Source: Candidatus Hodarchaeota archaeon (GTDB lineage Archaea > Asgardarchaeota > Heimdallarchaeia > Hodarchaeales > Hodarchaeaceae). From it: a DNA stretch of 15,634 bases. Positions 1-15,634 of this stretch are shown piece after piece. Each line of letters opens with the position of its first letter. Within the stretch, counting starts at the first letter, position 1. The stretch lies in NCBI GenBank assembly GCA_016840035.1, contig JAEOTC010000251.1, positions 1 to 15,634 of the forward strand, written 5' to 3'. The position numbers were made by a program, and so were the translations under genes. Below the pieces are notes generated by a model, which made no database searches, was not told the DNA's origin, and saw nothing but the letters and a program-made list of their open reading frames with translations.

Positions 1-2573
1 AACATTCTTGACAACTGTTGTATGTTCATTCCTAAAGATCTTTCCACAGCAAGTTCACGAGCACGTCCATGTAATTGATTATAACCGTAAAATAGAATGG
101 CCAAAATTATTACTGCAAGAGAGATGATAAAAAGAACATTGAAATGAAAAAAGAGAATCTGCACATTTACTGAATCCGTAACTTCATGAATAAGCTCTTC
201 AGCAAAAATAAGCGAGTAATTACCGTAAGTTTTCTTCATAGCAGTAAAATTAGCGGATTGTGAAAGATCGAGATAGTATCCCTCTTGTAAAATGGAAATT
301 GGAACCCCGACGGATGATAATGCTGTAAATGTTTCATTACTAATGACGAGTTTGGGTGTAGCGATCGAAGATGAAGGATGAGTCTGGATTAAGCGCGGCC
401 AATAGTTAAAAGAACCTAAGATACTCAACGAAATAGATCCATTATTTTCTGTAGTAATCGACAGAGAATCACCAATTTTCTGTTTAGAAATATCTTGAAA
501 TTCTTCATTTACCAATACTGATAAATTATTCGATAGTAAGTCAGAAATAACCTGAGATTTCACGAAATTATTTTCAAAATAACCTACATCCAAAAATGAC
601 GGAAACACAACAAATGTTTCTAAGGAAATAGGGGATGTTGGAGAAATTGGAAGACTTACAATAGCAAATCGAACATGAGATTGGACATTCGGATCATTGA
701 AGAAGGATGCTTCTAGACTATTATTCCAAAAGTGGTCATAAAAACAGTCAGCACCAACTGAATAATAAGCATTCCGAATACTATTCGACTGAACATTGTC
801 GGGTACCACAAACATTGCCAAAGAAATGGAAAAAATCAGCGAAAATAATAAAATTATCTTTGTTACTGCAAATTTCTGGCGAGTCATATTAGTAACAGAA
901 TATGATATTAAATTTCCAAACCGTTTCCAAAGCTTTTGAGCAATGAAGTTCAGGATTGGATGAATGAGGCGAGAAAGCATCATAATACCTCCTATTAAAA
1001 GGAAAAAAGGAAATGGAATGAATATAACCACCAAAAAGAGTAAAAAGAAGAATGAGAGCACACCTAATTCCATAAATACATTGGTGAAAGACGCATTAAA
1101 TATAAGGTTAAGAAAGAATATATTTCCAATAACACCCATTGCTAAAAGAAGAAAATTAACTTTGTTTTGTTTCCAAAATGGAGATGGAGTACTAGATGAT
1201 TGGGACTCACCAATATCGAGTTTGCTTAATCCAAACATACGACTTATAATAATCACTCCTGAAATTGCTCCACCCAACAATAATATAGCAGGAACAGAAT
1301 AGGAAAATGTGAAGAAAATATCTAAACTCAATAAAACGGTATTAATTGTAATTCCAAGTCCTGATCCTAGTATAAAAGCAAAAAAAAGTGAAAAAAACCC
1401 TTCGATGAATATTATTGCCATTAATTGAAATGTACTAACCCCACGTAACCGAATAAGTTGAATATGGGTTTTTCGCTGCTCAATAAACATATTTGTAGAA
1501 AAATTTGCAAAGAACATGGCAATTAACAAGCTAGGAATCATTAAAAGAAGACCAAAAATGGTTAATAGGAATATTTCATCATAGAGATCTTCAAACTCAA
1601 CTAAATCAAGTTTGTTAGTGGTAGTGTAGAAAATATTATCCAATGGAACATATCTTTGTGGCAAAATTTGGATAGGGGAATAACCGAGAGCAGCTGAAAA
1701 TGTTTGAACATCCTTTATGATTTTTTGGAGAGAGAAAAATGTTGCTTTTCCTTTTAGGGATATTGAAAATTGAGCAGTGACGTGTCCCTTAATCCCTGTT
1801 TCAAGAAATAATGAGCTGATATTACTAAAGAGTTCATGGTCTGTATGAAAGCCAGAATGGACTATCGGATTATTAATAAGAAAGGGATCAGAAATTACCC
1901 ATTCATGATAATCAGAAGATCTTGGATCAATAACTGGAGAGTAGATCCCTACTATAGTCACATTGAAATTGGCTTTAGGTATTTGATTGACTTCAATTGA
2001 AATAGTTACATTATTCCCAAGCTGGACAATCCCTTCTATGTCTTCTTCATGTTGAGATTTATGAGACGTACTATGTATGAATATCATTTCTCCAGGATTA
2101 AATGGAAGTCTACCCTGAAAATTAGGTAATGTTACGACCTCATCTAATTGGGACCGATTTAATGAGGCAATTCCAATATATCTACTTACATTTTTTTCAG
2201 TTAGTGGATTAAATGCAAATATTTTTTGATGATTAAGCTCACAAAAGTTGAGCGAAAAATATTGGTCATCTGAGATAATATCTGCTAGATCATGACTCTC
2301 TGCAGTCTCTAAGACAAGATTACGCAATATTTTAGCTTCATTCTCTAAAAGATCCTTAGAGAATGTTTTATCAAAGCGAATCCCCCAAAAACTAATATCA
2401 CCTTTTTGTGACACCTGTTGGTCAACATAATCCATCTTAAACGATAAATCACTTGTAAAAGTTGTGGTCAGAAGTGCAATTACAATGATCAATCCGATAG
2501 TCGTGACCAGAATATTGTTTCTATCTTCTCGTAGGTTTTCTTTAATAAAATCAAAAAAACTTAGTATACTCAT
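1..2573 (-). CDS. FtsX/MacB-like ABC transporter permease, 3' end outside the window
   Basis: Manual translation from ATG at 2573 (MSILSFFDFIKENLREDRNNILVTTIGLIIVIALL...) showed no stop in the stretches read and appears open to the window edge. It has an N-terminal TM helix, a large soluble loop, the FtsX-type motif EQRKTHIQLIRLRGVS followed by several TM helices, then a second repeat starting NAYYSVGAD. Confidence 0.85.
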   Translation of the reverse strand, partial: MSILSFFDFIKENLREDRNNILVTTIGLIIVIALLTTTFTSDLSFKMDYVDQQVSQKGDISFWGIRFDKTFSKDLLENEAKILRNLVLETAESHDLADIISDDQYFSLNFCELNHQKIFAFNPLTEKNVSRYIGIASLNRSQLDEVVTLPNFQGRLPFNPGEMIFIHSTSHKSQHEEDIEGIVQLGNNVTISIEVNQIPKANFNVTIVGIYSPVIDPRSSDYHEWVISDPFLINNPIVHSGFHTDHELFSNISSLFLETGIKGHVTAQFSISLKGKATFFSLQKIIKDVQTFSAALGYSPIQILPQRYVPLDNIFYTTTNKLDLVEFEDLYDEIFLLTIFGLLLMIPSLLIAMFFANFSTNMFIEQRKTHIQLIRLRGVSTFQLMAIIFIEGFFSLFFAFILGSGLGITINTVLLSLDIFFTFSYSVPAILLLGGAISGVIIISRMFGLSKLDIGESQSSSTPSPFWKQNKVNFLLLAMGVIGNIFFLNLIFNASFTNVFMELGVLSFFFLLFLVVIFIPFPFFLLIGGIMMLSRLIHPILNFIAQKLWKRFGNLISYSVTNMTRQKFAVTKIILLFSLIFSISLAMFVVPDNVQSNSIRNAYYSVGADCFYDHFWNNSLEASFFNDPNVQSHVRFAIVSLPISPTSPISLETFVVFPSFLDVGYFENNFVKSQVISDLLSNNLSVLVNEEFQDISKQKIGDSLSITTENNGSISLSILGSFNYWPRLIQTHPSSSIATPKLVISNETFTALSSVGVPISILQEGYYLDLSQSANFTAMKKTYGNYSLIFAEELIHEVTDSVNVQILFFHFNVLFIISLAVIILAILFYGYNQLHGRARELAVERSLGMNIQQLSRM

Positions 2574-2776
2574 AGCTGTTTCACGAATGGAAATAGTAGA
2601 TAAATTCAGAACTAATAGATACTGGTATCAACCTTAAACATAAATCCTTACAATGTATTATATGGATTCTTTCTTTATTCGAATATTTCAATCAATTCTT
2701 CTTTTATACTTAACTAAGAACTTTAAATTATTTGAAGGAAAATTCCTCCTTTGGATTAATGAATGAGTGGTTGAAA

Positions 2777-2959
2777 TCAAACCATAACGCTTTGTTTTCC
2801 AGCTTCATCATAGAGCTGGAAAAAATAATCAATCGTGGTGTGGATTAACTGTTGGTCTTCAGTAATAACACCTGCTTCATGTAGAACAGTCATAGAACGT
2901 TCTATCAAATTTGCTGACCCTAAGTACATTTTAATTTCATCAGATATAATCAATTTCTC
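2777..2959 (-). pseudogene. C-terminal fragment of a phospholipase D (HKD)-like nuclease/phosphodiesterase domain
   Basis: The frame reads EKLIISDEIKMYLGSANLIERSMTVLHEAGVITEDQQLIHTTIDYFFQLYDEA..., matching (H)xKxxxxD-x5/6-GSANL...E-x-G. A TAA stop (2960-2962) sits at the position of the catalytic His. Confidence 0.6.
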
Positions 2960-3232
2960 TTAATTTAGCTAAGACTCTATTTTATATAATTTTCTATAAA
3001 GTCGAAAAGCTTCATAGACAAGATTCAAGCTAGTTCTTGATTTTAGAGACAAGACTCACTTTCAGTTATCTTTCGTCACTGGCATTACCATAGATAGAAT
3101 GACTCCATAGGTTCCGTGAAGGTCAAGAAATGATCTATACTAAAAAGAACCAAGAAAAAACCACAAAAAAATGTAATTCAGTTATTAGCTTTTAAGGATT
3201 ATTTTTCTCTATTACTTGTCCTTAAGGATGTG

Positions 3233-3319
3233 TCCTGCAATACCCTGCAAACCAGTTTCTCATAAAACTTCTAGGGGAAAAACTGAAAGATTTAAAGCTT
3301 CATCCTGCAATACCCTGCA
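3233..3319 (+). repeat. Left 87-bp direct repeat (att-like), two TCCTGCAATACCCTGCA cores 70 bp apart
   Basis: Aligns without gaps to 13672-13758 with 8 mismatches. TGCA-ataccc-TGCA occurs at 3236-3249 and 3306-3319. Confidence 0.95.
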
Positions 3320-3523
3320 GATAAATAAGGTCTGATGAGAGGCGAACTCGATTGTTCGAATTTCACGCAGAATGAATGGTTAGGAAATCAACAAAAAACG
3401 TAATAGAACGATTTTTCAAACAAGATCTCTCTTGATAATAGTAGTGAAATTACCTATAATTTGTAGTGCTTTTGCTGTGAATGGTCTTCTTTGAAGGTAT
3501 GTGAATTTCATTTTGCATGTCAT

Positions 3524-3566
3524 TTGACACTCATTTTCGGGAAATGGGAGTCAAAGAGTATATAAG
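3524..3566 (+). promoter_or_regulatory. Imperfect inverted repeat plus archaeal TATA box for the 3587 ORF
   Basis: TTGACACTCATTTT-cgg-GAAATGGGAGTCAA (3524-3554, 11/14 paired) is followed by TATATAAG (3559-3566), which ends 20 nt before the ATG. This is consistent with a leaderless archaeal transcript. Confidence 0.55.
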
Positions 3567-3586
3567 ATAGTTAGCTGATGGATTAG

Positions 3587-3982
3587 ATGGTTACTACAAT
3601 GACCCAAGAACAAAACTTGATAAAGCAAAAATCTGAGAAATCAGAGTCAGTAGCACCAGCAATCCCCAACCCCCACAATGAGATCAAAGCAATCTTTGAT
3701 CCACCAACAGAATTACCAATCGTCTGCCTTGAGGCAAGTGAACGGTCATTCATATTAGACCGAAGATGGGCAGGTAAACGAACAGCTGAAATTGTCCAAA
3801 AGAAATTTGGTGGTTACGGTATCGTTACCAATGAACAGCTGAGCCAAGCAACCAAACAAGCGTGGGATGAACGAGTTGCTGTCTGCCAAGCATTGACTCA
3901 GGAGAATAAAACTCCTGTTGAGGCTGAACCAGAGTCAGGGAACCCTGAACCAACACAGAACACAGTGGAGAAAGCTATCTAG
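3587..3982 (+). CDS. Hypothetical protein, 131 aa
   Basis: Stand-alone ORF with a TATA box upstream and an oligo-T tract downstream. No family recognised. Confidence 0.75.
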   Translation: MVTTMTQEQNLIKQKSEKSESVAPAIPNPHNEIKAIFDPPTELPIVCLEASERSFILDRRWAGKRTAEIVQKKFGGYGIVTNEQLSQATKQAWDERVAVCQALTQENKTPVEAEPESGNPEPTQNTVEKAI

Positions 3983-3987
3983 CTTAG

Positions 3988-4009
3988 TTCTCTTCTCCCC
4001 TTTTTTTCC
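3988..4009 (+). terminator. Pyrimidine/oligo-T archaeal-type terminator
   Basis: TTCTCTTCTCCCCTTTTTTTCC directly after the stop codon, between convergent genes. Confidence 0.5.
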
Positions 4010-4047
4010 AGATGTTGTTTATTGTGCTTATTTATAGCCAAATTTAT

Positions 4048-4962
4048 TTAAAACAGAACCTGTTGGCTGATCCCATCGAGGACATTAAAACACATTCTGA
4101 TAAATTTATCCTTCTTTTCGTAATTAGTCACTATTGTACTCTTGAATGAGCTCATTAGTGTAGCATAGAATTTATCATTAACAACTCGTTTTTCAGTAGT
4201 CTTAGATCTGACTTTTTTTCGTTTCTGCTTTTTTTGAAGAGCTTTCATGAACTCTTGAGGAGAATAATATTCACCCTTTTTTTCAGGATAATGCTCAATA
4301 CCCTGTTCAGCATAAATCAACTTCAGAAATGTTCCCATCTTCTCTTTGGCGTCATCCTCATTATCCTCCGCGGAAATAAGATACTTTTGATTAATACTAC
4401 TTCCAAAAGACCTCATGGATGCAAGATCGCTTGATAAAAGCAAATAGGGAAAACTTTCAGGGTATTTTTTCAAACGAGTGAAGATGGAGTTCCAACGCAG
4501 AACAACCAAAACTTCTCTATTAAAGAACATCTTAAGGAACCATTCCCCTGTTTTTTGGCGATTTTTCTTGATTTGTTTAACAAGGAGTAATTTTTGTTCT
4601 TCATCGTGTTCGTCTCTACCCACTGGTTTCGACTTGTCCCCTCCTTCATAGAGATATTCAAACAAGAAGTCCACTACTGCCTTAAAATCAATAGTGCTTT
4701 TTCGTTCTCTAAGACTGAGATTATCTGGATCATTCTTGATCATTCCAGCCCCTCTATTATCCAAATACGACAATGCTTCAGAGATATTTCCCTCTGAACT
4801 TCCTTTGGGATTTTTTCGTATCATAAATTTTGAAATTTCGACATTTTTACACGGTTTTTTCCAACAACATCCGAGAATGCCCGCTACTACTTCTATTGAT
4901 GGTGTGTAACCTTTTCTTTTTTCTTCAAAGATTCTATCAATTTGGATTGTCATTTTTTTCAT
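4048..4962 (-). CDS. Hypothetical protein with a probable N-terminal winged-HTH, candidate repressor
   Basis: 304-aa ORF. The segment NVEISKF...SSEGNISEALSYLDNRGAGMIK resembles a wHTH recognition helix and wing. It is transcribed divergently from the replication operon. Confidence 0.6.
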   Translation of the reverse strand: MKKMTIQIDRIFEEKRKGYTPSIEVVAGILGCCWKKPCKNVEISKFMIRKNPKGSSEGNISEALSYLDNRGAGMIKNDPDNLSLRERKSTIDFKAVVDFLFEYLYEGGDKSKPVGRDEHDEEQKLLLVKQIKKNRQKTGEWFLKMFFNREVLVVLRWNSIFTRLKKYPESFPYLLLSSDLASMRSFGSSINQKYLISAEDNEDDAKEKMGTFLKLIYAEQGIEHYPEKKGEYYSPQEFMKALQKKQKRKKVRSKTTEKRVVNDKFYATLMSSFKSTIVTNYEKKDKFIRMCFNVLDGISQQVLF

Positions 4963-4997
4963 CTATATTGTTTTTTAAAACAATGATTTTTAAACCC

Positions 4998-5050
4998 TTC
5001 GGAAATTTGTTTATTCTCCGAATGCTTCGGAAATATACAGATCACCCGAA
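4998..5050. promoter_or_regulatory. Two tandem palindromic operators TTCGGA-N13-(T/C)CCGAA
   Basis: Sites at 4998-5022 and 5026-5050 with a 28-bp period, next to a TTTTTAAA TATA-like box (4987-4994) in the divergent intergenic region. Confidence 0.65.
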
Positions 5051-5110
5051 ACAATCAATGGAATCGTTATCCAAGAAGGTTTTTCACAATAACAAAGCAG
5101 AATAGAAATC

Positions 5111-5144
5111 TTTTAAAACATAGATATAACATGTTGTATTTGTG
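5111..5144 (+). promoter_or_regulatory. TATA-like box followed by a 26-bp imperfect palindrome
   Basis: TTTTAAAA (5111-5118), then CATAGATATAACATGTTGTATTTGTG (5119-5144, 10/13 pairs Watson-Crick). Confidence 0.5.
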
Positions 5145-5202
5145 AATCAAATTGACCCTACAACCAGAAAAAAAGAAGGCTGAAATCAATTATAACCTCA
5201 TA

Positions 5203-5337
5203 ATGGTTATATGTCAAAAATGCGGTTACAAATGGAATCCCCGCAGAAAAACAAGGCCAGTCAGGTGTCCCCATTGTCAGTGTCTTAAATGGGATAACTA
5301 TCAACCACCAAAAAAGCAGGGTGAAACAAGCCAATGA
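5203..5337 (+). CDS. Small zinc-ribbon protein (CxxC-x14-CxxC)
   Basis: MVICQKCGYKWNPRRKTRPVRCPHCQCLKWD is a motif typical of small zinc fingers of archaeal viruses and plasmids. ATG at 5203 is preferred over the TTG at 5152. Confidence 0.8.
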   Translation: MVICQKCGYKWNPRRKTRPVRCPHCQCLKWDNYQPPKKQGETSQ

Positions 5338-5474
5338 AAAATACTTCCTCTATCAATTCCCAAATTATCAATCAGTTCATCCGCACCCAAAAAACGAGTA
5401 ACGAGTACTTACGAAAAGAGCTTAATGCTTTGAAAGTGCGTGTAGAAGACCTAGAAAACTCTAAGCAGCATTAG
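5334..5474 (+). CDS. Small coiled-coil protein, 46 aa (below the ORF-track cutoff)
   Basis: MKNTSSINSQIINQFIRTQKTSNEYLRKELNALKVRVEDLENSKQH. It has an ATGA overlap with the zinc-ribbon stop, GGGTGA upstream and a heptad Leu/Val pattern. Confidence 0.6.
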   Translation: MKNTSSINSQIINQFIRTQKTSNEYLRKELNALKVRVEDLENSKQH

Positions 5475-5663
5475 AAACAAAAAAAGAGAGAATGGGCGAA
5501 TCATTCACCCCATGAATGTCCGCCTATATGAGAGTAGATCCAATGAAGAAAGACTACAAGCTAGCAGAGACTAGTCCCACTAATAAATCTTTTGATTCTA
5601 ATCCCGTCCCAAATATTGAGTTTTTCAAAAAGGGTTATCATTGGATAAAAGGAGGGATCTAAT

Positions 5664-6962
5664 ATGTCTAGCCCTGAAAAAAGAAAATTAGAGCTCCGAC
5701 CCGAAGACAAACAATTTCTGGCTTACCTGAAAAAACAAGGTCTTACCCCACAAGCCTCAGTAGTCTCCCACTGTCCCGATTGTGCTAATTATAACGAAGG
5801 GGGGTGTATCAAACACCACTGGTCTAGCATACCTCTAGAGAAAACGTCCTTTGTTTTTGATGAAAAATCCCCTGCCTACCATAAAAAACATCCAAGCCTT
5901 CACTGCCTTAACTGGCGAATTAAAACCCCCCAGAAGCCTTCTCGGGAAGAACAGATTAAGACGGAAGAGGAGGAGAAGAGAGAGGAACCTAATCTAAATG
6001 AGTATCATTGCCTGAAGAATTATTTTCCCCTTCTCAAAAATAAGGATGTTACAGAGAAGAAGAAACAATATGTTGCAGAGGATATTGTTTCTGCATTACA
6101 TCGTCAATACCCTGAAATAGACGAATTATCTATGTTAGAACAGATGGATAATTGGAACCAACAACTAAGGGATTCAGGCATATATGGGCTTTCACCTACG
6201 AGGAAGCACCGAGCGATAAAACGGGGGTTTGAGGAAAAACTCTCCTGCGAGCATTATAACGGTATTCTTCCTCTCCAAAAAGAATGTACTCTCTCTGATT
6301 GTCCTAAATATGATGGTACAATAGAACGGGAGAGAACTATAATTGAAAGGTTAGCAGATGAAATTACTCATATAAGACTTTTCAAGGGCGATAACACGGA
6401 GATGACCAAAGATGAATACACCATTTTTCTCCGAGATAAAAGTATTCTGTTATCACATAAGCAATTAATGAGACCAGCTCCTTTTATAGAAAAATATTTA
6501 CAGGTTTTTGGAGACTTACTTAAGATTAGTCCTAGTGAATGGTATATAATCTTCAATGAGATCATTAAACCAAAAATTACAGAGATCATAAAGGGAGAGA
6601 AAGTCGAAACAGAAGAATATTACCGAGAAATGTTTGTAGATTCTCTACATGAACGAGGAGTCGTTTATAGTTGGAATGAGGTTAATCGCAACTCTCCTGT
6701 TTATAATACCAAAGATTCAACCCTCTGGGTTCAAACTACAATTGTTGGGGAGCTAAAAGAGCAAATAGGACTAACTTGTAGCCTTAGAAAACTACGGTCG
6801 ATTCTAAACCCAGTTATAGCTCGTGGCGTGGAACGGAAACGGATTGGAGGAGGGGGAGCTCGGAGTTATTTTTGGATATTCAAGGGTGAAAAACTAGGAA
6901 TAGAACCTCCAATAGACAAACTAGACTCTTACATGAACAATAGCAAGGAAAGAAGAAAATGA
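5664..6962 (+). CDS. Putative replication initiator/primase-associated protein (Cys-rich N-terminus, PriCT-like helical domain, C-terminal wHTH-like region)
   Basis: GGAGG RBS at 5651. It contains CPDC-x7-C and MDNWNQQL...GLSPTRKHRAIKRG...LSCEH-x9-C-x4-CP, resembling primase C-terminal domains. It lies directly before an origin-like region and a helicase. No AEP catalytic or Walker A motif was seen. Confidence 0.55.
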   Translation: MSSPEKRKLELRPEDKQFLAYLKKQGLTPQASVVSHCPDCANYNEGGCIKHHWSSIPLEKTSFVFDEKSPAYHKKHPSLHCLNWRIKTPQKPSREEQIKTEEEEKREEPNLNEYHCLKNYFPLLKNKDVTEKKKQYVAEDIVSALHRQYPEIDELSMLEQMDNWNQQLRDSGIYGLSPTRKHRAIKRGFEEKLSCEHYNGILPLQKECTLSDCPKYDGTIERERTIIERLADEITHIRLFKGDNTEMTKDEYTIFLRDKSILLSHKQLMRPAPFIEKYLQVFGDLLKISPSEWYIIFNEIIKPKITEIIKGEKVETEEYYREMFVDSLHERGVVYSWNEVNRNSPVYNTKDSTLWVQTTIVGELKEQIGLTCSLRKLRSILNPVIARGVERKRIGGGGARSYFWIFKGEKLGIEPPIDKLDSYMNNSKERRK

Positions 6963-6967
6963 TTTTC

Positions 6968-7165
6968 AAATGTCCTATATATAGGGGAAAAACAAATGAT
7001 AGCGAGGAGTAGTAGTAGTGGTACTACTAGTACTACTACTATTCTATCTATTAAAAATATCATGGGACATGGGACACTAGAACTACTATCTTTTATCTAT
7101 GATGTTTTTTTATTTCCTAATAAAAGGAAATTTAATTTTGAAGTGTCCGATGAAGTGTCCTATAT
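6968..7165. other. Putative replication origin: inverted GGACA/TGTCC iterons around an AT-rich core, plus palindromes
   Basis: ATGGGAC x2 (7062-7075), TGAAGTGTCC x2 (7139-7148, 7151-7160), TGTCCTATAT x2 (6971, 7156), the CCTATATATAGG palindrome (6974-6985) and an AGTAGTAGTA/TACTACTACT stem (7008-7040). Confidence 0.65.
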
Positions 7166-7186
7166 CTTCTGGGAGGAGAGGTCAAA

Positions 7187-9316
7187 ATGACCACAATCAA
7201 AGTTATTGGTTTTGCAGGAACAGGAAAGACTTCTTATCTAGTGAATCGTGTTGATAAATTATTTGACAAAGGAGTTCAACCGTATGAGATTGGGTTTTAT
7301 ACTTTTACAAGAGCTGCAGCTAAGGAAGCGATTGATAGAGCGCTCTCCAAGTCTCCCCGGTTTCAAAGGCAGGATTTTGCTCATTTCAGGACGATTCATT
7401 CCGAAGCTGCACGGTTACTGGAATTGCGGGAGGAGGAAGTGTTTGTAACTGATGAGCGATTGAGAGAGTTCTGTAAGAGCATTGGTTACCGTTACCAGAG
7501 CAAGGTTGATCCAGATAATCCCTATGACTGGATAACCAGTCGTTATGAGTCCCCTCAAGTATTTTGGGGGATAAGATCTTTTGGGGTTCATAACCGATAT
7601 ACAGCTAGCGAAGCTTGGGGGCATTATCCAAACCTTCGTTATGTTAAAAGCCCGCGTATTTCAGAATACAAAGCCTTTTTAGATAAATATTCAGAGTATA
7701 AAAACAATAATGGCTTGTTTGACTATGATGACCTCCTAATTAACGTTCTTCAAGAGAAGAAGCGTCCTAATATTAAATATTTGATTGTTGATGAATTTCA
7801 AGACTTAAGCCCCCTGTTATATCAAATCTTTCTTCAATGGGAGGAATCAATGGAGGAAGTTATTATTGCTGGTGACCCCTATCAGGCAATTTACACGTTC
7901 ATGGGGGCGGAACCACGTTTTTTGCAAGATCATCCCTCTGATAAACGAGTCGTTCTTCCCCAAAGTCATAGACTCCCATCGAACATTTTGACTTTCGCAC
8001 AAAAATTCATCAATGATCCTGACTTTCAGACAGTAACTCCTACTCAACAAAAGGGGAAAGTAAAGAAGGAGTTTGGTAAGTCATTCGATTTAGGGGGTCA
8101 ATTGAGACAAGAAAACGGTTCAGTTTTTTTATTAACTCGAACCAACTATCATCTTAGACAATTAATGGAGGAATTGATTGCTGAGGGGATCCCTTTTTCA
8201 ACATACCGAGGTTACTCTCTGTGGGATCGGAAAACCTGTGTCCTTCACAATGCGCTACTTAATTTTTCTACCAATAAGCCTCTCTCTCTTTATGAAACAA
8301 AAGTACTTCTTGCTCATTTCCCTGTGAAAGGCTTTCTCGTTCATGGGGCTAAAGCCAAAATAAACAAGGCTATCAAAGAGAAGGCTTCCTGTGATCTTTG
8401 TTTCCCTGACTCACAAGAGGTTGATCCTGAGAAATTAAAAAAGGTCTTTTTACAAAACCCCACTTTCTCTCATCTAATCCATTCTTTAAAACTTGGTAAA
8501 TGGCATAAAACCGCTCTAAAAGAAAAAATAGACCGTTCTCGAGAGCGCATTGATTATCAGCAATTACTGATCAAGGTAGGTACGATCCACTCTGTCAAGG
8601 GTCGTGAAGCTGATACAGTCTTCTTATTCACTGATATAACCAAGCGAATCCGTCTCTGGGCGGATGTTAAAGAAGAACAGCGGATTTGGTTCGTAGGAAT
8701 GACTCGTGTGCGTCAAAAACTAGTAATAGTAGAGAATCGCTTTAATAAAAAAACTCGTAATAATTATCATATTCCAGTTCCCCCTCAGAAACCCTCTGAT
8801 TCCTCTGAGACTAGCCCAGAAGAGGTTAAGCCTCTAAAATTACCAACGATAAGTGAAATCCCCATAACCCCCGATTTTTGGAAAGACCACATTCTTAAAG
8901 TGGTTGAGGATAGTGAGAAGGGTATCAACAGAGAGGATTTGAGGGAAAAAATAAGGAAGTCAATAGGATTAGGTATTGGTTATTATAATCGTCTAGATAA
9001 ACTGATTGATGAATTACTCCAAGAGGGAATCCTCTTTGAACCTCCAACTGGATATATTCAACTATCTCCCGAATCTGACTTAGATTCCGAAACATTTGAT
9101 TATGACTCGCTTCCCGTACCAGAAGGATTCTTACATTGGATTGGTCGTCGTTCTACAAGACTTGGTGAGCCTGTATCTGTTGTATCCGCCCACTTATGGC
9201 TAGCAAAAAAATATCAATTATCCGATAATGATGTGGAGACAGTAATCAATGAATGCCTACGACAAGGACTAATTTTTGAACCACGTTTGAATCAATTACT
9301 TCCTGTGGGAGAGTAA
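7187..9316 (+). CDS. UvrD/Rep-family SF1 DNA helicase with two C-terminal winged-helix domains
   Basis: Motifs GFAGTGKTS, FTRAAAKEA, FRTIHS, DYDDLL, VDEFQD, AGDPYQAIYTFMGA, QSHRLP, TIHSVKGREAD and EEQRIWFVGMTR. GGAGG RBS upstream. The tail repeats are LLQEGILFEP and CLRQGLIFEP. Confidence 0.95.
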   Translation: MTTIKVIGFAGTGKTSYLVNRVDKLFDKGVQPYEIGFYTFTRAAAKEAIDRALSKSPRFQRQDFAHFRTIHSEAARLLELREEEVFVTDERLREFCKSIGYRYQSKVDPDNPYDWITSRYESPQVFWGIRSFGVHNRYTASEAWGHYPNLRYVKSPRISEYKAFLDKYSEYKNNNGLFDYDDLLINVLQEKKRPNIKYLIVDEFQDLSPLLYQIFLQWEESMEEVIIAGDPYQAIYTFMGAEPRFLQDHPSDKRVVLPQSHRLPSNILTFAQKFINDPDFQTVTPTQQKGKVKKEFGKSFDLGGQLRQENGSVFLLTRTNYHLRQLMEELIAEGIPFSTYRGYSLWDRKTCVLHNALLNFSTNKPLSLYETKVLLAHFPVKGFLVHGAKAKINKAIKEKASCDLCFPDSQEVDPEKLKKVFLQNPTFSHLIHSLKLGKWHKTALKEKIDRSRERIDYQQLLIKVGTIHSVKGREADTVFLFTDITKRIRLWADVKEEQRIWFVGMTRVRQKLVIVENRFNKKTRNNYHIPVPPQKPSDSSETSPEEVKPLKLPTISEIPITPDFWKDHILKVVEDSEKGINREDLREKIRKSIGLGIGYYNRLDKLIDELLQEGILFEPPTGYIQLSPESDLDSETFDYDSLPVPEGFLHWIGRRSTRLGEPVSVVSAHLWLAKKYQLSDNDVETVINECLRQGLIFEPRLNQLLPVGE

Positions 9317-9337
9317 TGAAAGGAGGAGCTTAGAAAA

Positions 9338-9600
9338 ATGAGAATGATTAAGGAGACCCATGAATTAAAATCATTAATTAAAGAAAAGATAAGAACAAAA
9401 AAGAATCAGAAACAGAAGAAATAATAAACCCACAAGATGAAAGACGACTAGAGATAATAAATGAAAAAGAGAAAAAAATAAGGAAAATACAAACAGAATC
9501 ATGGAAAGTAGGAGACACACCAAAAGAACAAGAACCATTCAAGAAAAAGATAATAGCACTCAAAAACGAAATAGAAGAAATAGAAAAACTTCAACGATGA
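9338..9600 (+). pseudogene. Frameshifted (or -1 recoded) small Lys/Glu-rich protein
   Basis: AGGAGG RBS and ATG 9338 give a 28-aa ORF (stop at 9424). It overlaps a start-less open -1 frame 9382-9600 (ESETEEIINPQDERRLEII...LKNEIEEIEKLQR). Confidence 0.45.
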
Positions 9601-10093
9601 AGTATTAAACGAATTAAAGGGATTAGGTCATTCAGATTTTAAAAATGACTTGGAGAGTAATTACTTACGTAATTATCACACAACGGACAGGTAAGCACTG
9701 GTTCAGCTGATTGAAATCGTTTTGTGATATTTGAGGCCAATGTGGCTAAATTTAAATCTGTGCGGGATTCTAAATTCTTTGTTAAAACTGTGGTAGATTT
9801 TCTTCAATTTATCATTAGTAATCAGCACTTCAGGATGAAAGACCATTATCTAGTGAATAAATAAGGGATAAAATACAATTTCTTGATGCGTTTGATAAGA
9901 GATTTAAATGCTCATTAGTGAAATCCGTCATTAATCTCCGTTCGTGCTCAGATCAATCTTCCTTTCTTAAAGGAATAAAAAGAATATTTGATCTTTGACT
10001 CTGTCAAAAAACTTAATATCCACTAACTCGGAGAGAAAATTGAATATTATAAACTAAAGAAGAGAAATTTAGTATAAAAATGAAGTGAATTAG

Positions 10094-10678
10094 ATGCAAG
10101 AGCTTTATTCTGCATTAAATGAGGAAGAAAGAGTTATCCTATTCGCTTTAGGGGCAGCAAATAATTCCCCAATAAACACTAAAACTAAGCTTCAGAAGCT
10201 CATTTTCTTAATCTCAAATGTGTTTCCAGATTATAAAGAGCTAATTGACTTTGAACCACATCATTTTGGGCCATATAGTGAGGATATAGTCGTAATTGTT
10301 GAGGATTTAATTCAGCTCGGACTAGTGGAAAGTAAAGGGAACCAATTTTTTCTAACTGAGAGAGGTGTAGATATATTTTCACAAATAAGACCCGCAGAAA
10401 GATTAATGCGGGTAATTGAGGATTTTAAAGAATTTCTAGACGATTTAACCAATGATGAAATTTTAACTTTCGTCTATGTTACCTATCCAGAATATATCGA
10501 AGAGTCAAAAAGATGGGATCAGTTACAAGGAAAGAGGGTAAATATAGCAATATCGTTATTGAAAAAACAGAAGATTAGCTTTGATAAAGCCGTAGAAATC
10601 GCAGGAAAATCCGCGAAAGACTTTGGAGCCATTTTAATTCAGAGGAAAATTAAGTGGAGACGAGAACCAACACCGTAA
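10094..10678 (+). CDS. Antitoxin-like protein: Panacea/SocA(YwgA)-like wHTH fused to a UPF0175-like HTH
   Basis: The N-terminal signature is TKLQKLIFL...FEPHHFGPYSEDI. The C-terminal AISLLKKQKISFDKAVEIAGKSAKDFGAILIQRKI matches the UPF0175 pattern. Confidence 0.75.
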   Translation: MQELYSALNEEERVILFALGAANNSPINTKTKLQKLIFLISNVFPDYKELIDFEPHHFGPYSEDIVVIVEDLIQLGLVESKGNQFFLTERGVDIFSQIRPAERLMRVIEDFKEFLDDLTNDEILTFVYVTYPEYIEESKRWDQLQGKRVNIAISLLKKQKISFDKAVEIAGKSAKDFGAILIQRKIKWRREPTP

Positions 10679-11238
10679 AGATTCTTGATAACACAGTCAT
10701 TTCCGCAAGTTTGAGAGAAATAGTGTCTATTAATCTACTCGAACGCTGTTCTCAAAGGTATGACATCGTCACTTCTCAAGAGGTTTATGAAGAAGCGAAA
10801 AGGGGATTTACAGACAAAACTCTTGTTGTTTTAAAGAAAATAGTAATGGTTGAAAATTTAAAGCTTCAAAAAGATTATAGCAATTTAATTGGATATTTAG
10901 AGGCTAGATATCCTTATCTTCATACAGGAGAACTATCATCTTTTCTTTTAGCTTTATTAAAATATGAATTAAATCAGTTAGCGTATTTCTATATTACTGA
11001 TGATAATCGGGCAAAAAAGGTGATCAGAGAAATCCATGAAGATAGTCTCTTTATTGAGCAATTAGGAATGCAATTCAGTAAAATTAATATTACAGGAACT
11101 ATTGGTTTAATACAAAGACTTAAAGAACATTGGTTGATAAAAGAAAGTGAAATTGAATCGATTATTCTTGATCTAGAAAAGAGTACATTTTATATTAATA
11201 GCGAAATAATTGTGCTACTAAGAGGTGATAGACCTTGA
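10654..11238 (+). CDS. PIN-domain ribonuclease (DUF3368/VapC-like)
   Basis: ILDNTVI, VYEE, LHTGELSS, ITDDNRAKK and ITGTIGLI supply the acidic PIN tetrad. The gene overlaps the antitoxin-like gene. Confidence 0.85.
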   Translation: METRTNTVKILDNTVISASLREIVSINLLERCSQRYDIVTSQEVYEEAKRGFTDKTLVVLKKIVMVENLKLQKDYSNLIGYLEARYPYLHTGELSSFLLALLKYELNQLAYFYITDDNRAKKVIREIHEDSLFIEQLGMQFSKINITGTIGLIQRLKEHWLIKESEIESIILDLEKSTFYINSEIIVLLRGDRP

Positions 11239-12263
11239 AACTTGATGTAAAATTAGAGGGAATTGATGATGAGCTGTTATATAAGAGAGTTTCACTTAAA
11301 TTAGGAAAAAAGAAGGTCATAACACCCACAAGAACCAATCCATCGACCGTAGTTAATTCAATTAATGAAGTTTACAATAGCTTTAAGACAACAACTATAG
11401 ATAATTGCTTAAATGATAATAAACGCGAAGCTCGTAAGAATAATGAAGTCAAGCGTAAATTAACAAGTGGTTTAAATTTTTATATAATCAGCTATACAAG
11501 CCCTGAAATTCCTAATGACAAACAAATAGAATTTCTTGCAGATATCCAGTATGGACATAGTGATGTAGTAATTACACCAACTTGGTCTCAAATTGTCAGA
11601 GATTCTAAGGATAGTCAGAAACTATTAGCTGAATATCGTAAATTGACTAACACTTTCTTAGATGTTGTTGAAACTCTCAATAATAAATCTATTATTGGCA
11701 TGATTTCCGCTAAACTTCCTAGAATTATACTAAAACCAGTAATAGATAATTATGTTAAAAGAAATATTACTTCATTTGTATTAGATTTCGATGGAAGATC
11801 AATTGATTCAGGAATGAGTTGGATAAGAAATTTAATGAGAATAGTGAAACAAGACACCGGTTTCGAGGAATCTTTTCTATATTCACTTAATCCTAGTCGC
11901 GGTAGGTTCACTAAAACTGCGAAACAAATCCTTGCTAAGGATTTTATCAATACAGCATTTGGTATGGATGTCGTTGGTTTATACCATATACCTTTAAGAG
12001 TCCATTTACCAAAAATGGACATACCTCCTAGAATTTTCATAAAAGAAAGCTATGGGTATGAAAGGATTCCTTCTAAACAATTAACCCAGAGAGGGATTAC
12101 TAATACCAAAGAATATAATCGAAATGAGCAATACAATGAGAAATTAACACTACAAACAAAACTAAAAGAAGAATCAACTATCGTAGACTATATTCAATCA
12201 AAATCCCAAGTAGATGAAAAGATAATTACTAAGATTAAAAAAGTTAAATCTGAAACAACATAA
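11235..12263 (+). CDS. Divergent tRNA-guanine transglycosylase (TGT)-like TIM-barrel protein, probably non-canonical
   Basis: TTGA overlap with the PIN stop and a GAGGTGA RBS. TGT-like landmarks appear in order: RVSLKLGKKKVITP, IQYGHSDVV, FGMDVVG and a C-terminal YN...E...L...L...DY helix. The Zn-binding Cys cluster is absent. Confidence 0.5.
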   Translation: MKLDVKLEGIDDELLYKRVSLKLGKKKVITPTRTNPSTVVNSINEVYNSFKTTTIDNCLNDNKREARKNNEVKRKLTSGLNFYIISYTSPEIPNDKQIEFLADIQYGHSDVVITPTWSQIVRDSKDSQKLLAEYRKLTNTFLDVVETLNNKSIIGMISAKLPRIILKPVIDNYVKRNITSFVLDFDGRSIDSGMSWIRNLMRIVKQDTGFEESFLYSLNPSRGRFTKTAKQILAKDFINTAFGMDVVGLYHIPLRVHLPKMDIPPRIFIKESYGYERIPSKQLTQRGITNTKEYNRNEQYNEKLTLQTKLKEESTIVDYIQSKSQVDEKIITKIKKVKSETT

Positions 12264-12660
12264 TTCACTGCTGAACATTTAATAGAGAGACGTATGGTCT
12301 ATTAAAAATTTTCTACATAATTCATACTGTTATACGATTAGTGAATTTGTGTATTAATTTCTTTTATTTCACTGAATTTAGCAGTTGATTAATTTTTGTT
12401 TGTTGAGAAAGACTTGAAAATAGCTCAATTTAAGGGAGAAATAATACCTACGATAATAGATTAACGACCTTGAGTGTGCAACCCTTAGATTTTTCATATT
12501 GTCCTTTCTAGCAATACGGTTCTTTTTCCAATTTTTAATTCTCTATCTCTTTGATCTTGAACCTTACTATTTTATGCCTCTCATACTGATCTTTCCTTAC
12601 TATCCATTTCTTCAGGAGCTGATTCATTGGTTGATGATTTATTGAAGTAATCGCATGAAA

Positions 12661-12688
12661 ACGTTACATGAATCAAATTATGTAATGT
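12661..12688. other. dif-like 11-6-11 tyrosine recombinase site
   Basis: ACGTTACATGA-ATCAAA-TTATGTAATGT. The arms are 9/11 inverted, and the right arm begins TTATGT like XerD-type arms. Confidence 0.4.
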
Positions 12689-13132
12689 AATATTGCCCTG
12701 AGAAATATTATGTAACGGAAATAAGTCTCTCAACTCACTATTTCTCTGTTCTATTAATTTCCACTCTAAGAAAACTAAATTTAGCCAATCCTCTAATAGA
12801 GGAGTTTATTCAAGCAAAAAAATCAGAGAAACGACCTAGTAATTAGAAATAGCAAAATATTTCCCTTAATGAGCCTTTCCTCCCCTTCAATACACTCGTG
12901 AATGAATAGTCATGTTCTGAGACTCGTTATGAGTCTCCTCACGCATGTAAAATACTCACGGATTCTTGCGGGCTAGAATAGCCCATAAATTAATTTTACC
13001 GTTATTTCCGTTTAATTTTCAAAAATAATCTCATTGAGTGAATCATACATTCTCATTTTTTCTTAAAGCGAGGGGGGTAGTTGGGGGGGTTTTATTTTCT
13101 CAAAGAATCAAGATTTGGAGGTTGATAGACAG

Positions 13133-13288
13133 ATGACTAAGAGATCCCCTATGTTTACATCAGAAAAGAATTTAGCTGTTGTGGATGTGAAAATCAAGCC
13201 TCTCAGTCTAGACCTTAAAGCTAGTGATATGAGTTTAAAGGTTAGTAAGAGAGGTGTAATTTTGCTTCTCAACCTTCGAGAGAGTTAG
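13133..13288 (+). CDS. Possible small protein, 51 aa
   Basis: MTKRSPMFTSEKNLAVVDVKIKPLSLDLKASDMSLKVSKRGVILLLNLRES, preceded by GGAGGT at 13117-13122. No other support. Confidence 0.3.
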   Translation: MTKRSPMFTSEKNLAVVDVKIKPLSLDLKASDMSLKVSKRGVILLLNLRES

Positions 13289-13524
13289 GATGCTCGTGAA
13301 ACATCCAATTTTTCACTTATCATGAGCTAAAAAAGTAAACCTGTCTTTTACAGTGAACTTTTTACGTAGAAAGAGTTGATTAATCACGTTATTTTGGATT
13401 ATACTTAATGAGAGGATGCTCAATGCAAAACAAGGAAAATTAACATCCTTATGGAGAGGAATGCAACATAAACCCCCTTAAAATCAAATCCAATTAACTT
13501 CCTTCAGTTTATCTAATCTTGTTG

Positions 13525-13567
13525 TGCATGAGTGTGCACACTAAGAAATAGCTGTTTTAATAAAGCT
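13525..13567 (+). repeat. Partial copy of the 70-bp unit (core plus Y arm)
   Basis: TGCA-tgagtg-TGCA, then cACTAAGAAATAGCTGTTTTAATAAAGCT, which matches 13759-13786 with one indel and two mismatches. Confidence 0.85.
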
Positions 13568-13671
13568 TATTACTAGGATGTTTGTTACTCATAATGTTGC
13601 CATAAAAGTTACAATATATATCGACATACAATATTTTTACTGACCTGACCTCACTTTTTTGCTTTCTTTTA

Positions 13672-13758
13672 TCCTGCAATGCCCTGCAAACCAGCTTCTC
13701 ATTAAGCTTATAGGGGAAAACCCGAAAGATTTAAAGCTTCATCCTGCAGTACCCTGCA
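13672..13758 (+). repeat. Right 87-bp direct repeat (att-like)
   Basis: 79/87 identical to 3233-3319, with cores at 13675-13688 and 13745-13758. Confidence 0.95.
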
Positions 13759-13828
13759 TACTAAGAATAGCTGTTCTAATAAAGCTATTAATTAAAACCT
13801 TTCAAGTTTAAGTATGCATAAGTGTGCA
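13745..13828 (+). repeat. Second 70-bp unit (Y), sharing a core with the right repeat
   Basis: A third core, TGCA-taagtg-TGCA at 13815-13828, lies exactly 70 bp after the 13745 core. The arm shares AGCT..TTCT.AT.AAGCT and AAAACC...AAG.TTTAA blocks with the X arm. Confidence 0.75.
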
Positions 13829-13894: not shown

Positions 13895-14857
13895 TTAGGC
13901 TCTCGCTCTCGCAAAATGGTTACGATAATCGTCGAAGGTTTCTTTTTCAGTGATTCCTAGATAGATCTGAGTAGTCCGAATAGAACCATGACCCATCAAT
14001 CTAGAAATAGTTAAAATGTTGACCCCTTCTCTATAAAGATTTGTAGCAAATGTTCTGCGGAGGTCATGCGAGGTAAACCATTGATTTTCCTTTATTTCTT
14101 CTGTATTTCCATAGATTAACTCGCTCATGTGATTAAAGTATCGCTGGAGGTTTCTGATGTCAAACTTACCCCTGCTAGAAAAGAACACTAATTTATGATT
14201 GGTTTGTTTGTATTCTATCCGAGTTTGAAACCATTTTTCCCATTCCTGAATATGATGGTCAAGAATAGGGATTCTTCGATCTTTTTTCCGCTTTGAACCA
14301 CGAATCTTTAGTAATTTATTTGTTAAATCAACATCCTGTAGCGTAAGATTGATATACTCGCCAGCCCTAAGACCGTAATTTATTCCAACCCAAAATAACA
14401 TCTTAAGGATAGGGTCGTGTAATTTTCTTAAACCTGATTTTATCTCGATGTGAGTTAATGCTCTAGTGGTGTATTCCTCATTTTTAGGTAAGTCAGGATA
14501 GTACTTTTGAATTTTTTTTAGTTTTCTATCTGAAATAATCAATTGCCCGTCAGGACTCGTTTTCTCTTCACTATGTAACCATTCAATCCAAGTCCTTATA
14601 GACCAGTAATTGACCTTAATGGTATTGGAGGAACATGGTTTAGGTCGTCTGTCCATCATTTCTTGCACAAATCTGGCGAGGTCTGTGGCTTGAATGTCGG
14701 GAAGCGTCTTTCCGTGCTTCTCCATCTTTTCTAAAAACTTTTGTACGTTGTACCCGTAATTTCTTAACGTTTTATGACTTTTTTGAGAAGTTACTAACGG
14801 GTCATTCATAAATGCTACAATTAGTGGATTCAATTCCTTTTTTTGTTTAGGACTCAT
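13895..14857 (-). CDS. Tyrosine recombinase/integrase (Xer-like)
   Basis: Complete catalytic set: GLRAGE (R), GSKRKKDR (K), SHDLRR (HxxR), LMGH (H) and TTQIY (Y). N-terminal SAM-like region KTLRNY...SSNTIKV. Confidence 0.96.
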   Translation of the reverse strand: MSPKQKKELNPLIVAFMNDPLVTSQKSHKTLRNYGYNVQKFLEKMEKHGKTLPDIQATDLARFVQEMMDRRPKPCSSNTIKVNYWSIRTWIEWLHSEEKTSPDGQLIISDRKLKKIQKYYPDLPKNEEYTTRALTHIEIKSGLRKLHDPILKMLFWVGINYGLRAGEYINLTLQDVDLTNKLLKIRGSKRKKDRRIPILDHHIQEWEKWFQTRIEYKQTNHKLVFFSSRGKFDIRNLQRYFNHMSELIYGNTEEIKENQWFTSHDLRRTFATNLYREGVNILTISRLMGHGSIRTTQIYLGITEKETFDDYRNHFARARA

Positions 14858-15416
14858 TTTCTTTACTATTCCATTTTAATCGTCTAGATCGTACTTTATA
14901 GGATAAAAACCCCTCCTGCATCAATTCTAGAAGAATTTCATCATAAACTTTATCATCTGTTATTTCTTCCTCCTTTAAGGGATATTCCTGAACTAGAAAA
15001 GCTTCAATTTTTTGGTAGGTATCCAATTCTGCTAATTTGTCGTAATTCAGCAGTTTATGTTTAATTTCTTCTAATAAATCTGCCTTTTCTCCATTTTCTT
15101 GTTGGTGGATCAATAACTGACTCATCTGTTGTAGTTTTTGAAGAGTTTCTTGTTGTTGTTGAAATAATCGATCTCCTAGTAGTTGAAAATCTTCTTTTGT
15201 AGCAGTATCGGTGATTATGGGTGCGTCTCCAATTTCCCAAAGCTCAGGACGTTTTAGGTACTTACGTACACCTTGTATAAGTAGCTCTGTTTTGTTTCCT
15301 CTGGTCAAAATCTTAGCAGCTTTCTCTAAGTCAGCTTTATCCTCTTTTAAGAGACGATAAGAGAATACTATGCCTTTTCCTTCCCCTTCTGATTCGTTTT
15401 CATCATTTTCCGTCAA
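14847..15416 (-). CDS. Ribbon-helix-helix DNA-binding protein with a coiled coil and a C-terminal wHTH-like region
   Basis: IVFSYRLLKEDKADLEKAAKILTRGNKTELLIQGVRKYL fits a CopG-like RHH. It has a Gln-rich coil and a tail reading ILLELMQEGFLSY. TTG start with an AGGAG RBS, and an 11-nt overlap with the recombinase start. Confidence 0.7.
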   Translation of the reverse strand: MTENDENESEGEGKGIVFSYRLLKEDKADLEKAAKILTRGNKTELLIQGVRKYLKRPELWEIGDAPIITDTATKEDFQLLGDRLFQQQQETLQKLQQMSQLLIHQQENGEKADLLEEIKHKLLNYDKLAELDTYQKIEAFLVQEYPLKEEEITDDKVYDEILLELMQEGFLSYKVRSRRLKWNSKENES

Positions 15417-15634
15417 TTCTTAACCGCTCCTTAGAATTTATTGGTCAAGCTTGACTGGACTTTTCACATTTATAAATGTATATTTTTTTGCTTTACATTA
15501 TGGGTATAACAAAAATTTTGCGAAATCAAAGTTTTGATAATTCCTTTTTTAACCATCGGAAATACAAAAAGAATCCACAAAGAAAGAAGGAGAAAAAAAG
15601 GAAAGGAGAGGCATTTTATCCTAGTTGGTAGAGT

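Follow-up and report, generated by a model that had tools for sequence, protein, structure and literature searches.

The window analysed here is a 15,634-bp stretch of DNA that makes up the entire contig C244 of a metagenome-assembled genome of Candidatus Hodarchaeota archaeon (4.3 Mb, 293 contigs, 87% complete); the contig ends at position 15634, and the runs that contain the window sequence are marine-sediment metagenomes. Our subject is a plasmid-like block of genes, among them a helicase gene and a toxin–antitoxin-like pair, that lies between two 87-bp direct repeats, DR1 and DR2, together with the Xer-like tyrosine recombinase (integrase) gene beside it, which is the sole intact gene of its kind in the window and stands outside the repeat pair. 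The features of the locus are collected in Table 1, where relatives are cited as genome and contig.

Two direct repeats around a replication module

A repeat search, direct comparison of the two copies and a self-BLAST of the window all recovered the repeats reported in a preliminary description of this DNA. DR1 and DR2 agree at 79 of 87 positions without a gap, start 10,439 bp apart, and are the sole pair that self-BLAST detected (E = 1e-27); their identity ends sharply at both edges of the 87 bp, and the longest exact run that they have in common is 25 bp. The whole assembly holds just these two copies. Our nucleotide and protein comparisons covered 60 relatives of the same class, with 400 Asgard genomes for one helicase search; the repeat was not found in any of the 60. 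The statement that the repeat is not the 3′ end of a tRNA gene stood: ARAGORN found no tRNA, and no Rfam RNA family was found, in the window.

A survey of genes and Pfam domains likewise bore out that the repeats enclose the helicase module and the toxin–antitoxin-like pair with no intact recombinase between them, and that one repeat has a recombinase gene as its immediate neighbour, with the stop codon 137 bp to the right of DR2. Judged from the repeat spacing, a crossover between DR1 and DR2 would, as originally proposed, yield a circle of 10,439 bp.

The enclosed helicase belongs to superfamily 1 (SF1) and combines UvrD-type domains with an archaeal winged-helix tail (Pfam UvrD-helicase, E = 2e-31; UvrD_C; MCM_WH_arc, E = 1e-7; phrog_1967, DNA helicase). 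Its relatives at 72% and 62% identity come from metagenome assemblies only. It had no match at E <= 1e-10 in the 60 relatives and no close relative in the viral collection, and in genome contigs only bacterial helicases of 22–31% identity were found; P0005, the relative at 62%, had no match at E <= 1e-60 in the 400 Asgard genomes. These two relatives (631 and 605 amino acids) carry no precomputed MCM_WH_arc domain and may lack the winged-helix tail.

Upstream of the helicase gene, a 432-amino-acid open reading frame (ORF) is a candidate replication initiator (Rep). It matched no Pfam or PHROG family and had no close relative in the genome collection; a single homologue was found among 5.8 billion proteins (55% identity), and its AlphaFold model was unusable, with a mean predicted local distance difference test (pLDDT) score of 48.6. 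In the overlapping toxin–antitoxin-like pair, the first member passed the Pfam UPF0175 cut-off (29.0 bits against 27.9), whereas the second fell below that of DUF3368 (21.9 against 27.3). No partition genes were found in the window by Pfam. The G+C content of the replication module is 0.36–0.42, compared with about 0.28–0.35 elsewhere in the window, and the central 3.7–12.3 kb have no nucleotide-level relative in the class. On the genes that it holds, “plasmid-like” is a fair label for the block, with self-replication as a candidate property that is unproven.

Two genes with no known family lie just inside DR1. Over its promoter region and first 53 codons (3478–3746), the 131-amino-acid ORF is 85% identical in nucleotides to G005:C298; the match there is to the start of a 288-amino-acid ORF (positions 13–281), which has an aconitase-family gene 3 kb away. 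From these matches, the N-terminal domain seems to be shuffled between proteins. The neighbouring 304-amino-acid ORF has homologues in G008:C56, beside the homologue of the 131-amino-acid ORF and an integrase gene, in G005:C17, in G020:C73 and on contig C217 of its own genome; the viral collection held no close relative.

Table 1. Features of the window, from left to right
Feature	Position	Strand	Basis or remark
FtsX-type permease gene, left end cut by contig edge	3–2573	-	Pfam FtsX
Relic of PLD-like (Nudix_N + PLDc_2) accessory gene	2783–3001	-	82–90% nucleotide identity to G005:C353, G002:C32, G019:C275
DR1, left direct repeat, 87 bp	3233–3319	+	repeat search, direct comparison
DR1 sites	3236–3249, 3306–3319	+	spacer ATACCC in both
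131-amino-acid ORF, no known family	3587–3982	+	homologue in G008:C56, 53% identical
304-amino-acid ORF, no known family, restricted to genus	4048–4962	-	homologue search
432-amino-acid ORF, Cys/His-rich N-terminus	5664–6962	+	Rep candidate
SF1 (UvrD/Rep-type) helicase with archaeal MCM-type winged-helix tail	7187–9316	+	Pfam, PHROG
UPF0175-like (10094–10678) and DUF3368/PIN-like (10654–11238) overlapping pair, toxin–antitoxin-like	10094–11238	+	Pfam
342-amino-acid ORF, no known family	11235–12263	+	operon with UPF0175-like/DUF3368 pair
Stretch without long ORF, 1.4 kb	12264–13671		
Non-coding patch P2	12623–12740	+	74% to G002:C61; 85% to G005:C360
Relic, first ~29 codons of a second, G002-type integrase gene, 87 bp	12754–12840	+	
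Conserved 57-amino-acid ORF (13115–13288) and conserved 150 bp downstream; patch P3, 13273–13318	13115–13439	+	
Site X, TGCA-TGAGTG-TGCA (13525–13538), and 38-bp arm Y (13535–13572)	13525–13572	+	
DR2, right direct repeat, 87 bp	13672–13758	+	repeat search, direct comparison
DR2 sites	13675–13688 (spacer ATGCCC), 13745–13758 (spacer GTACCC)	+	motif scan
Arm Y′ (13755–13790) and site X′, TGCA-TAAGTG-TGCA (13815–13828)	13755–13828	+	
Intact Xer-like tyrosine recombinase, 320 amino acids	13895–14857	-	Pfam Phage_integrase, E = 5e-27, and SAM-like N-terminal domain
189-amino-acid ORF overlapping integrase start	14847–15416	-	candidate DNA-binding partner or regulator
63-bp stretch with TATA-like TTTATAAA, upstream of 189-amino-acid ORF	15462–15524	+	identity to G002:C66

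A phased site array beside the recombinase gene

Each repeat opens and closes with the 17-mer TCCTGCARTRCCCTGCA and carries a pair of TGCA-N6-TGCA sites at a distance of 70 bp; the 53 bp that separate the two sites are conserved along with them. The window contains six such sites against 0.09 expected. The two that lie outside the repeats, X and X′, flank DR2 on either side. A 38-bp arm follows both site X and the last DR2 site, the second arm being a gapped copy of the first (about 90% identical, with two 1-base gaps), and X′ sits exactly 70 bp past the last DR2 site, meaning that the phasing runs beyond the repeat toward the recombinase gene. X and X′ have perfect 5-bp inverted arms, GTGCA-TGAGTG-TGCAC and ATGCA-TAAGTG-TGCAT, respectively. 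DR1 and DR2 are thus parts of a larger array of sites, which abuts the recombinase gene at its 3′ end.

Searches with parts of the array found little beyond the window: the 17-mer gave single chance matches only in the genome and viral collections, and its four-hexamer pattern gave only unrelated 10-bp satellites, for example (CCTGCAACAC)n, in the metagenome, genome and viral collections. Long 10-bp satellites of the form (CCTGCAACAC)n or (CCTGCAGTAT)n are frequent in metagenome contigs and confound motif searches based on CCTGCA. The motif GGCTGGATT is not above chance frequency in the window, and the TGCA-N6-TGCA sites are unlike it. Downstream of the integrase genes of five relatives, we found no common site motif.

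The solved structures nearest to the recombinase are those of archaeal XerA (5HXY and 4A8E), followed by XerD and XerH; IntI4, the sixth-best solved match (E = 1.5e-7), ranks behind the Xer proteins. The catalytic R, HxxR, H and Y motifs align to XerA 5HXY as GLRAGE, HDLRRT, GHGS and TQIY. The enzyme is 28–31% identical to the other Xer-like protein of the genome, encoded on contig C174, and is an element-type paralogue rather than the chromosomal Xer. It is about 42% identical to the integrase of G002:C61, and no close relative was found in the viral and metagenome collections. Alignment indicates a possible ribbon-helix-helix N-terminus and a conserved C-terminal domain in the 189-amino-acid protein encoded over its start; the same overlapping pair recurs in G002:C61 and G005:C383, and the G008 gene at this position has a weak NikA-like match.

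The target sites of Xer-type enzymes have a 6-bp spacer between two inverted arms, a plan to which the geometry of TGCA-N6-TGCA conforms. The neighbouring recombinase may use these sites, a link that we draw from adjacency and geometry. The cognate spacers of DR1 and DR2 differ by one base each (ATACCC/ATGCCC and ATACCC/GTACCC), which accounts for two of the eight mismatches between the repeats. For Cre/loxP or lambda Int, a spacer mismatch of this kind lowers strand exchange; by analogy, if the spacers are the overlap regions, these mismatches would hinder exchange at present, and the module may be fixed in place.

Conserved patches and the extent of the island

We compared the surroundings of the integrase gene among relatives. 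G002:C61 has, in one stretch and with no array, the homologue of the 189-amino-acid ORF, the integrase gene, P3 (87% identical, 170 bp past the integrase stop codon) and P2 (about 1.2 kb downstream of the integrase gene). The order in the window is the same with the array inserted, P2 and P3 have the orientation expected from that of the integrase gene, and the P2 and P3 regions recur in G005 at 85–90% identity. The DNA that flanks DR2 on both sides corresponds, in these alignments, to one module in the array-less relative G002.

Other conserved sequence lies close by, still between the repeats. The integrase-gene relic matches the 5′ end of the G002:C61 integrase gene at 65 of 71 nucleotides (92%), with 79% amino acid identity over residues 4–32 followed by a stop; it lies about 830 bp from DR2, in the orientation opposite to that of the intact gene. 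Over 292 bp, the region of the 57-amino-acid ORF matches G005:C165 at 90% identity, and the reading frame is preserved. The ORF ends in ...VSKRGVILLLNLRES and looks, by eye, AbrB/SpoVT-like. P2 is the remnant, about 100 bp long in the window, of a non-coding element of about 460 bp that is 86% identical between G005:C360 (1229–1681) and G002:C61 (46296–46756) and may serve the element family as an origin, a regulatory region or an RNA gene.

In G008:C56 the order is regulator, integrase, three genes, and then the homologues of the 131- and 304-amino-acid ORFs, about 3.3 kb from the integrase homologue; in the window, their counterparts are the two genes just inside DR1. Cellular-type genes lie upstream of the regulator in both relatives, with ThyX two genes away in G002 and PKD- and TPR-domain genes in G008, and genes of unknown or defence type lie on the 3′ side of the integrase gene, the same polarity as in the window. 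Beside the G008 integrase gene, G008:C56 205000–216936 encodes an HNH protein, a protein with a Ras-like GTPase domain, a 1214-amino-acid protein with a weak nSTAND3 NTPase match, and DUF6602 and PIN proteins; this looks like defence-type cargo.

Read evidence came from Logan contigs at about 5x depth. DR1 is bridged by contigs of three runs from one study (X1, 2507–3404; X2, 3116–3712; X3, 3109–3361) with at most one mismatch; an X2 probe behind position 13407 had no match in the genome. In a different, cold-seep study, contigs of X5 are 93–97% identical to 9865–12256 and 13978–15523; the permease flank and 3.6–8.9 kb have almost no cover there at likeness of at least 90%, which we did not count as evidence.

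Because of the collinearity with G002, the linkage in G008, the shared polarity and the X5 contigs, it is more likely that the recombinase belongs to the same mobile island as the block. Two ideas that go with the reading in the preliminary description, a recombinase foreign to the block and repeats as borders between element and host, were not supported. Collinearity with G002, the G008 linkage of the integrase to two of the inside genes and the integrase relic within the block speak against the first, and the second is opposed by the match of both sides of DR2 to one G002 module and by the accessory-gene relic outside DR1. Neither repeat separates host DNA from element DNA. Relics and patches with 85–92% identity to other species, where they stand in other contexts, make the contig a patchwork island.

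The relic outside DR1 keeps the last ~74 codons of the PLD-like gene (ORF 2777–2953), is cut at the HKD motif and has two stops upstream. The gene is intact in G019 (290 amino acids), extends across two contigs in G005 and is cut about 27 bp away in G002:C32; it is present in 4 of the 22 genomes of the genus and was not found in the other 18. G002 and G005 agree at 98% over the 200 bp of its 3′ end, although its neighbours differ in all four genomes; this may mark a hot spot of recombination or a module carried along by mobile DNA. As a precise integration target the gene is unsupported, given that the breakpoints in G000 and G002 are about 27 bp apart and that so few genomes have it.

At the far left, the FtsX-type permease gene is probably the host-side flank. 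Of 21 genomes of the genus, 18 have paralogues at about 25% identity, and in six of the eight loci of relatives that we read the next gene after the permease is ABC ATPase-like; no fitting piece of its missing C-terminus was found on other contigs. At the far right, the 63-bp stretch may be a promoter or else the outer junction of the island. It includes the palindromic TTTATAAA and is 92% identical to an intergenic site of G002:C66 between CitMHS transporter and CTP_transf_1 genes, and nowhere else in the genus is it found; a mobile promoter, a scar and an attachment site are all conceivable. We rejected an island placed between CitMHS and CTP_transf genes as in G002:C66, as the genome's own CTP_transf orthologue (C229) lies in a tight operon with other genes. 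The contig ends showed no overlap at 21–127 bp that would point to circularity or to a neighbouring contig, and a search for a direct repeat between the right contig end and the DR1 region gave an A-rich low-complexity match only.

Origin of the block and its known parallels

To the explanation that we prefer we give about an even chance of being right: the locus would be a composite integrative island in which a replication and toxin–antitoxin module without an integrase lies between two copies of the two-site unit of the recombinase. The recombinase and its 189-amino-acid partner gene would form one end of the island and belong to the same element family as the genes between the repeats, and the two repeats would be copies of the two-site unit of the array. 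Their origin would most likely be site-specific accretion or nested integration at this array, either because a circular replicon recombined into it or because two related elements came to lie in tandem and one of them lost its recombinase gene down to the 87 bp at 12754–12840. The integrase relic inside the block fits a route of decay followed by accretion. The outcome would be a module without an integrase, with sites on either side on which the neighbouring recombinase could act in cis. The repeats, the array, the gene content, the synteny across DR2, the relics and the type of recombinase are observations; binding of the sites by the recombinase, site-specific recombination as the source of the repeats and a continuing capacity to form the 10,439-bp circle are what we infer from them.

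Several points weigh against this composite island. The arms around TGCA, read directly, are weakly palindromic in the repeat copies, agreeing at just two or three more positions beyond TGCA. The integrase loci of relatives have no TGCA-N6-TGCA sites or comparable repeats, which is why adjacency and geometry are all that connects enzyme and sites. Synteny with G002 consists of short patches of 46 and 118 bp, and P2 and P3 could have been carried by an inserted replicon rather than by the integrase module; since the island is a patchwork, linkage in one relative need not hold here. Lastly, no third site copy occurs elsewhere in the assembly, and the contig ends 218 bp upstream of the 189-amino-acid ORF.

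An autonomous satellite or giant cassette without an integrase, sitting in a chromosomal landing pad and served in trans by a recombinase of the pad or by an unrelated neighbour, strikes us as unlikely, though worth weighing. It would account for the lack of an intact recombinase between the repeats, for the position of the recombinase gene outside DR2 with further phased sites beside it, for the higher G+C content of the replication module and for the contrast between the helicase and Rep candidate, which have no relatives in the genus, and the integrase, which has them. It fits poorly with the contents of the block, in that patches P2 and P3 are contiguous with the integrase gene in G002, the 131- and 304-amino-acid genes travel with an integrase homologue in G008 and an integrase-gene relic is present; the outer flank of DR1 is moreover a relic of an accessory gene and not core genes. 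The contigs add a weak point, since they show no circle or empty-site junction: joints from 13758 to 3320 or from 3232 to 13759 were not listed and depth was flat, which at about 5x says little on excision. The block is more likely to be a sub-module of the island than a free-standing satellite. The preliminary description had offered a sub-module of a larger element as its alternative, and this part fits the data better; for the rightward extension that it attached to the idea there is no further sequence to search, as the window is the whole contig.

We regard it as improbable that the repeats are duplicated protein-binding arrays (iterons or handcuffing sites of the replicon, a partition site or operators of the 189-amino-acid protein) at which the block never excises. 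The four CCTGCA hexamers of each repeat are direct repeats, paired 10 bp apart in each 17-mer, and hexamers 10 bp apart face one side of the helix, as is typical of iterons or ribbon-helix-helix operators; in P1- and F-type plasmids, iterons are clustered on two sides of a replication region, and the repeat carries GAAAGATTTAAAG, which on direct reading resembles a BRE (transcription factor B recognition element) and TATA box. Position and structure speak against this reading. DR2 lies between two convergent gene ends, those of the 57-amino-acid ORF and the integrase gene, far from a promoter or the Rep candidate, so that a recombination site fits better than an operator. The window has no partition genes; the conservation of the 53-bp spacer along with the sites indicates a duplicated segment rather than selection on the sites alone; and the sites adjoin an Xer-type gene and have the 6-bp-spacer geometry of Xer targets.

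A bolder form of site-specific recombination, to which we attach only a small probability, is that the Xer-like recombinase keeps a phased pad of TGCA-N6-TGCA sites in 70-bp units next to its gene and captures and releases replicons as giant cassettes with a double site at each end; such a system would be integron-like, plasmid-scale and trans-dependent. Joining of two molecules through the 87-bp repeat during assembly is very improbable: depth is about 5x and the genome is fragmented into 293 contigs, but the longest exact run common to the repeats is shorter than the usual assembly words, the independent contigs that bridge DR1 as assembled argue against a chimera, and synteny with G002 across DR2 would be unexpected from one.

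Among known systems, pTN2-like replicons pair an SF1 helicase with a primase-polymerase or Rep protein; the block encodes an SF1 helicase, next to a Rep candidate that matched no Pfam or PHROG family. Elements of the pNOB8 type keep an intact integrase gene inside their att (attachment site) pair, whereas integration of an SSV-type element splits its integrase gene. The window resembles both in having a tyrosine recombinase and direct repeats of the kind that integration leaves. It is not an element of the pNOB8 type: an intact catalytic recombinase is present, but its gene lies outside the repeats, and these are not junctions between host and element. Nor is it a case of an SSV-type split gene, the integrase being whole and the 29-codon relic matching the integrase of G002, not that of the window. 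We also rejected an integron cassette, as the repeats are direct rather than inverted (there is no attC hairpin) and the recombinase is nearer to Xer than to IntI4.

Integrative mobile elements exploiting Xer (IMEX) and dif/pdif modules, such as the gonococcal genetic island and the pdif modules of Acinetobacter, make use of Xer enzymes encoded elsewhere, namely the chromosome-resolving Xer of the host and its dif sequence. The block is like them in having no recombinase of its own and in being bracketed by sites with 6-bp spacers; it differs in that the enzyme at hand is an element-type paralogue and the arm symmetry is weak.

Few mobile elements have been described for Asgard archaea, and in the papers searched we found none for Hodarchaeales. 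Yucahu-i of Atabeyarchaeia is an integrated plasmid-like element of about 10.9 kb with a nested, excising mini-Yucahu-i (PMC11529989). It shares with the window an Asgard host, a plasmid-like element of about 10–11 kb, a tyrosine integrase and a sub-part that can act as a unit of its own. Its att sites are 11 bp long, its integrase gene is the first gene inside the element, and its circles were shown by reads (PMC11529989); in the window, by contrast, the integrase gene is outside the repeats, no circle was found among contigs and there is no sequence relation to Yucahu-i.

The closest arrangement is bacterial. In streptococci, modules without an integrase, called cis-mobilizable elements (CIMEs), stand in tandem with integrase-bearing integrative and conjugative or integrative and mobilizable elements (ICEs or IMEs) through accretion (PMC5704250, citing Pavlovic 2004, Bellanger 2011). 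Like a CIME, the module in the window has flanking att-type repeats, no integration gene and an integrase-bearing partner beside it that would share the middle site, and by analogy the integrase of this partner could excise the module alone or the composite. Unlike a CIME, it has an archaeal host, an Xer-like recombinase and double sites, with two cores 70 bp apart, in a phased array; its target is neither a tRNA gene nor a gene 3′ end, and an outer third site is known from the CIME plan only. The contig offers a testable case, with an Xer-like recombinase, an adjoining candidate site array and a module without an integrase between two-site units. If the recombinase does not act on the sites, the locus is an ordinary patchwork island; if it does, this would be a simple enzyme-and-site pair from an Asgard archaeon, and tandem accretion and cis-mobilization, so far known from bacterial ICEs and IMEs, would also contribute to gene flow in the archaeal lineage closest to eukaryotes.

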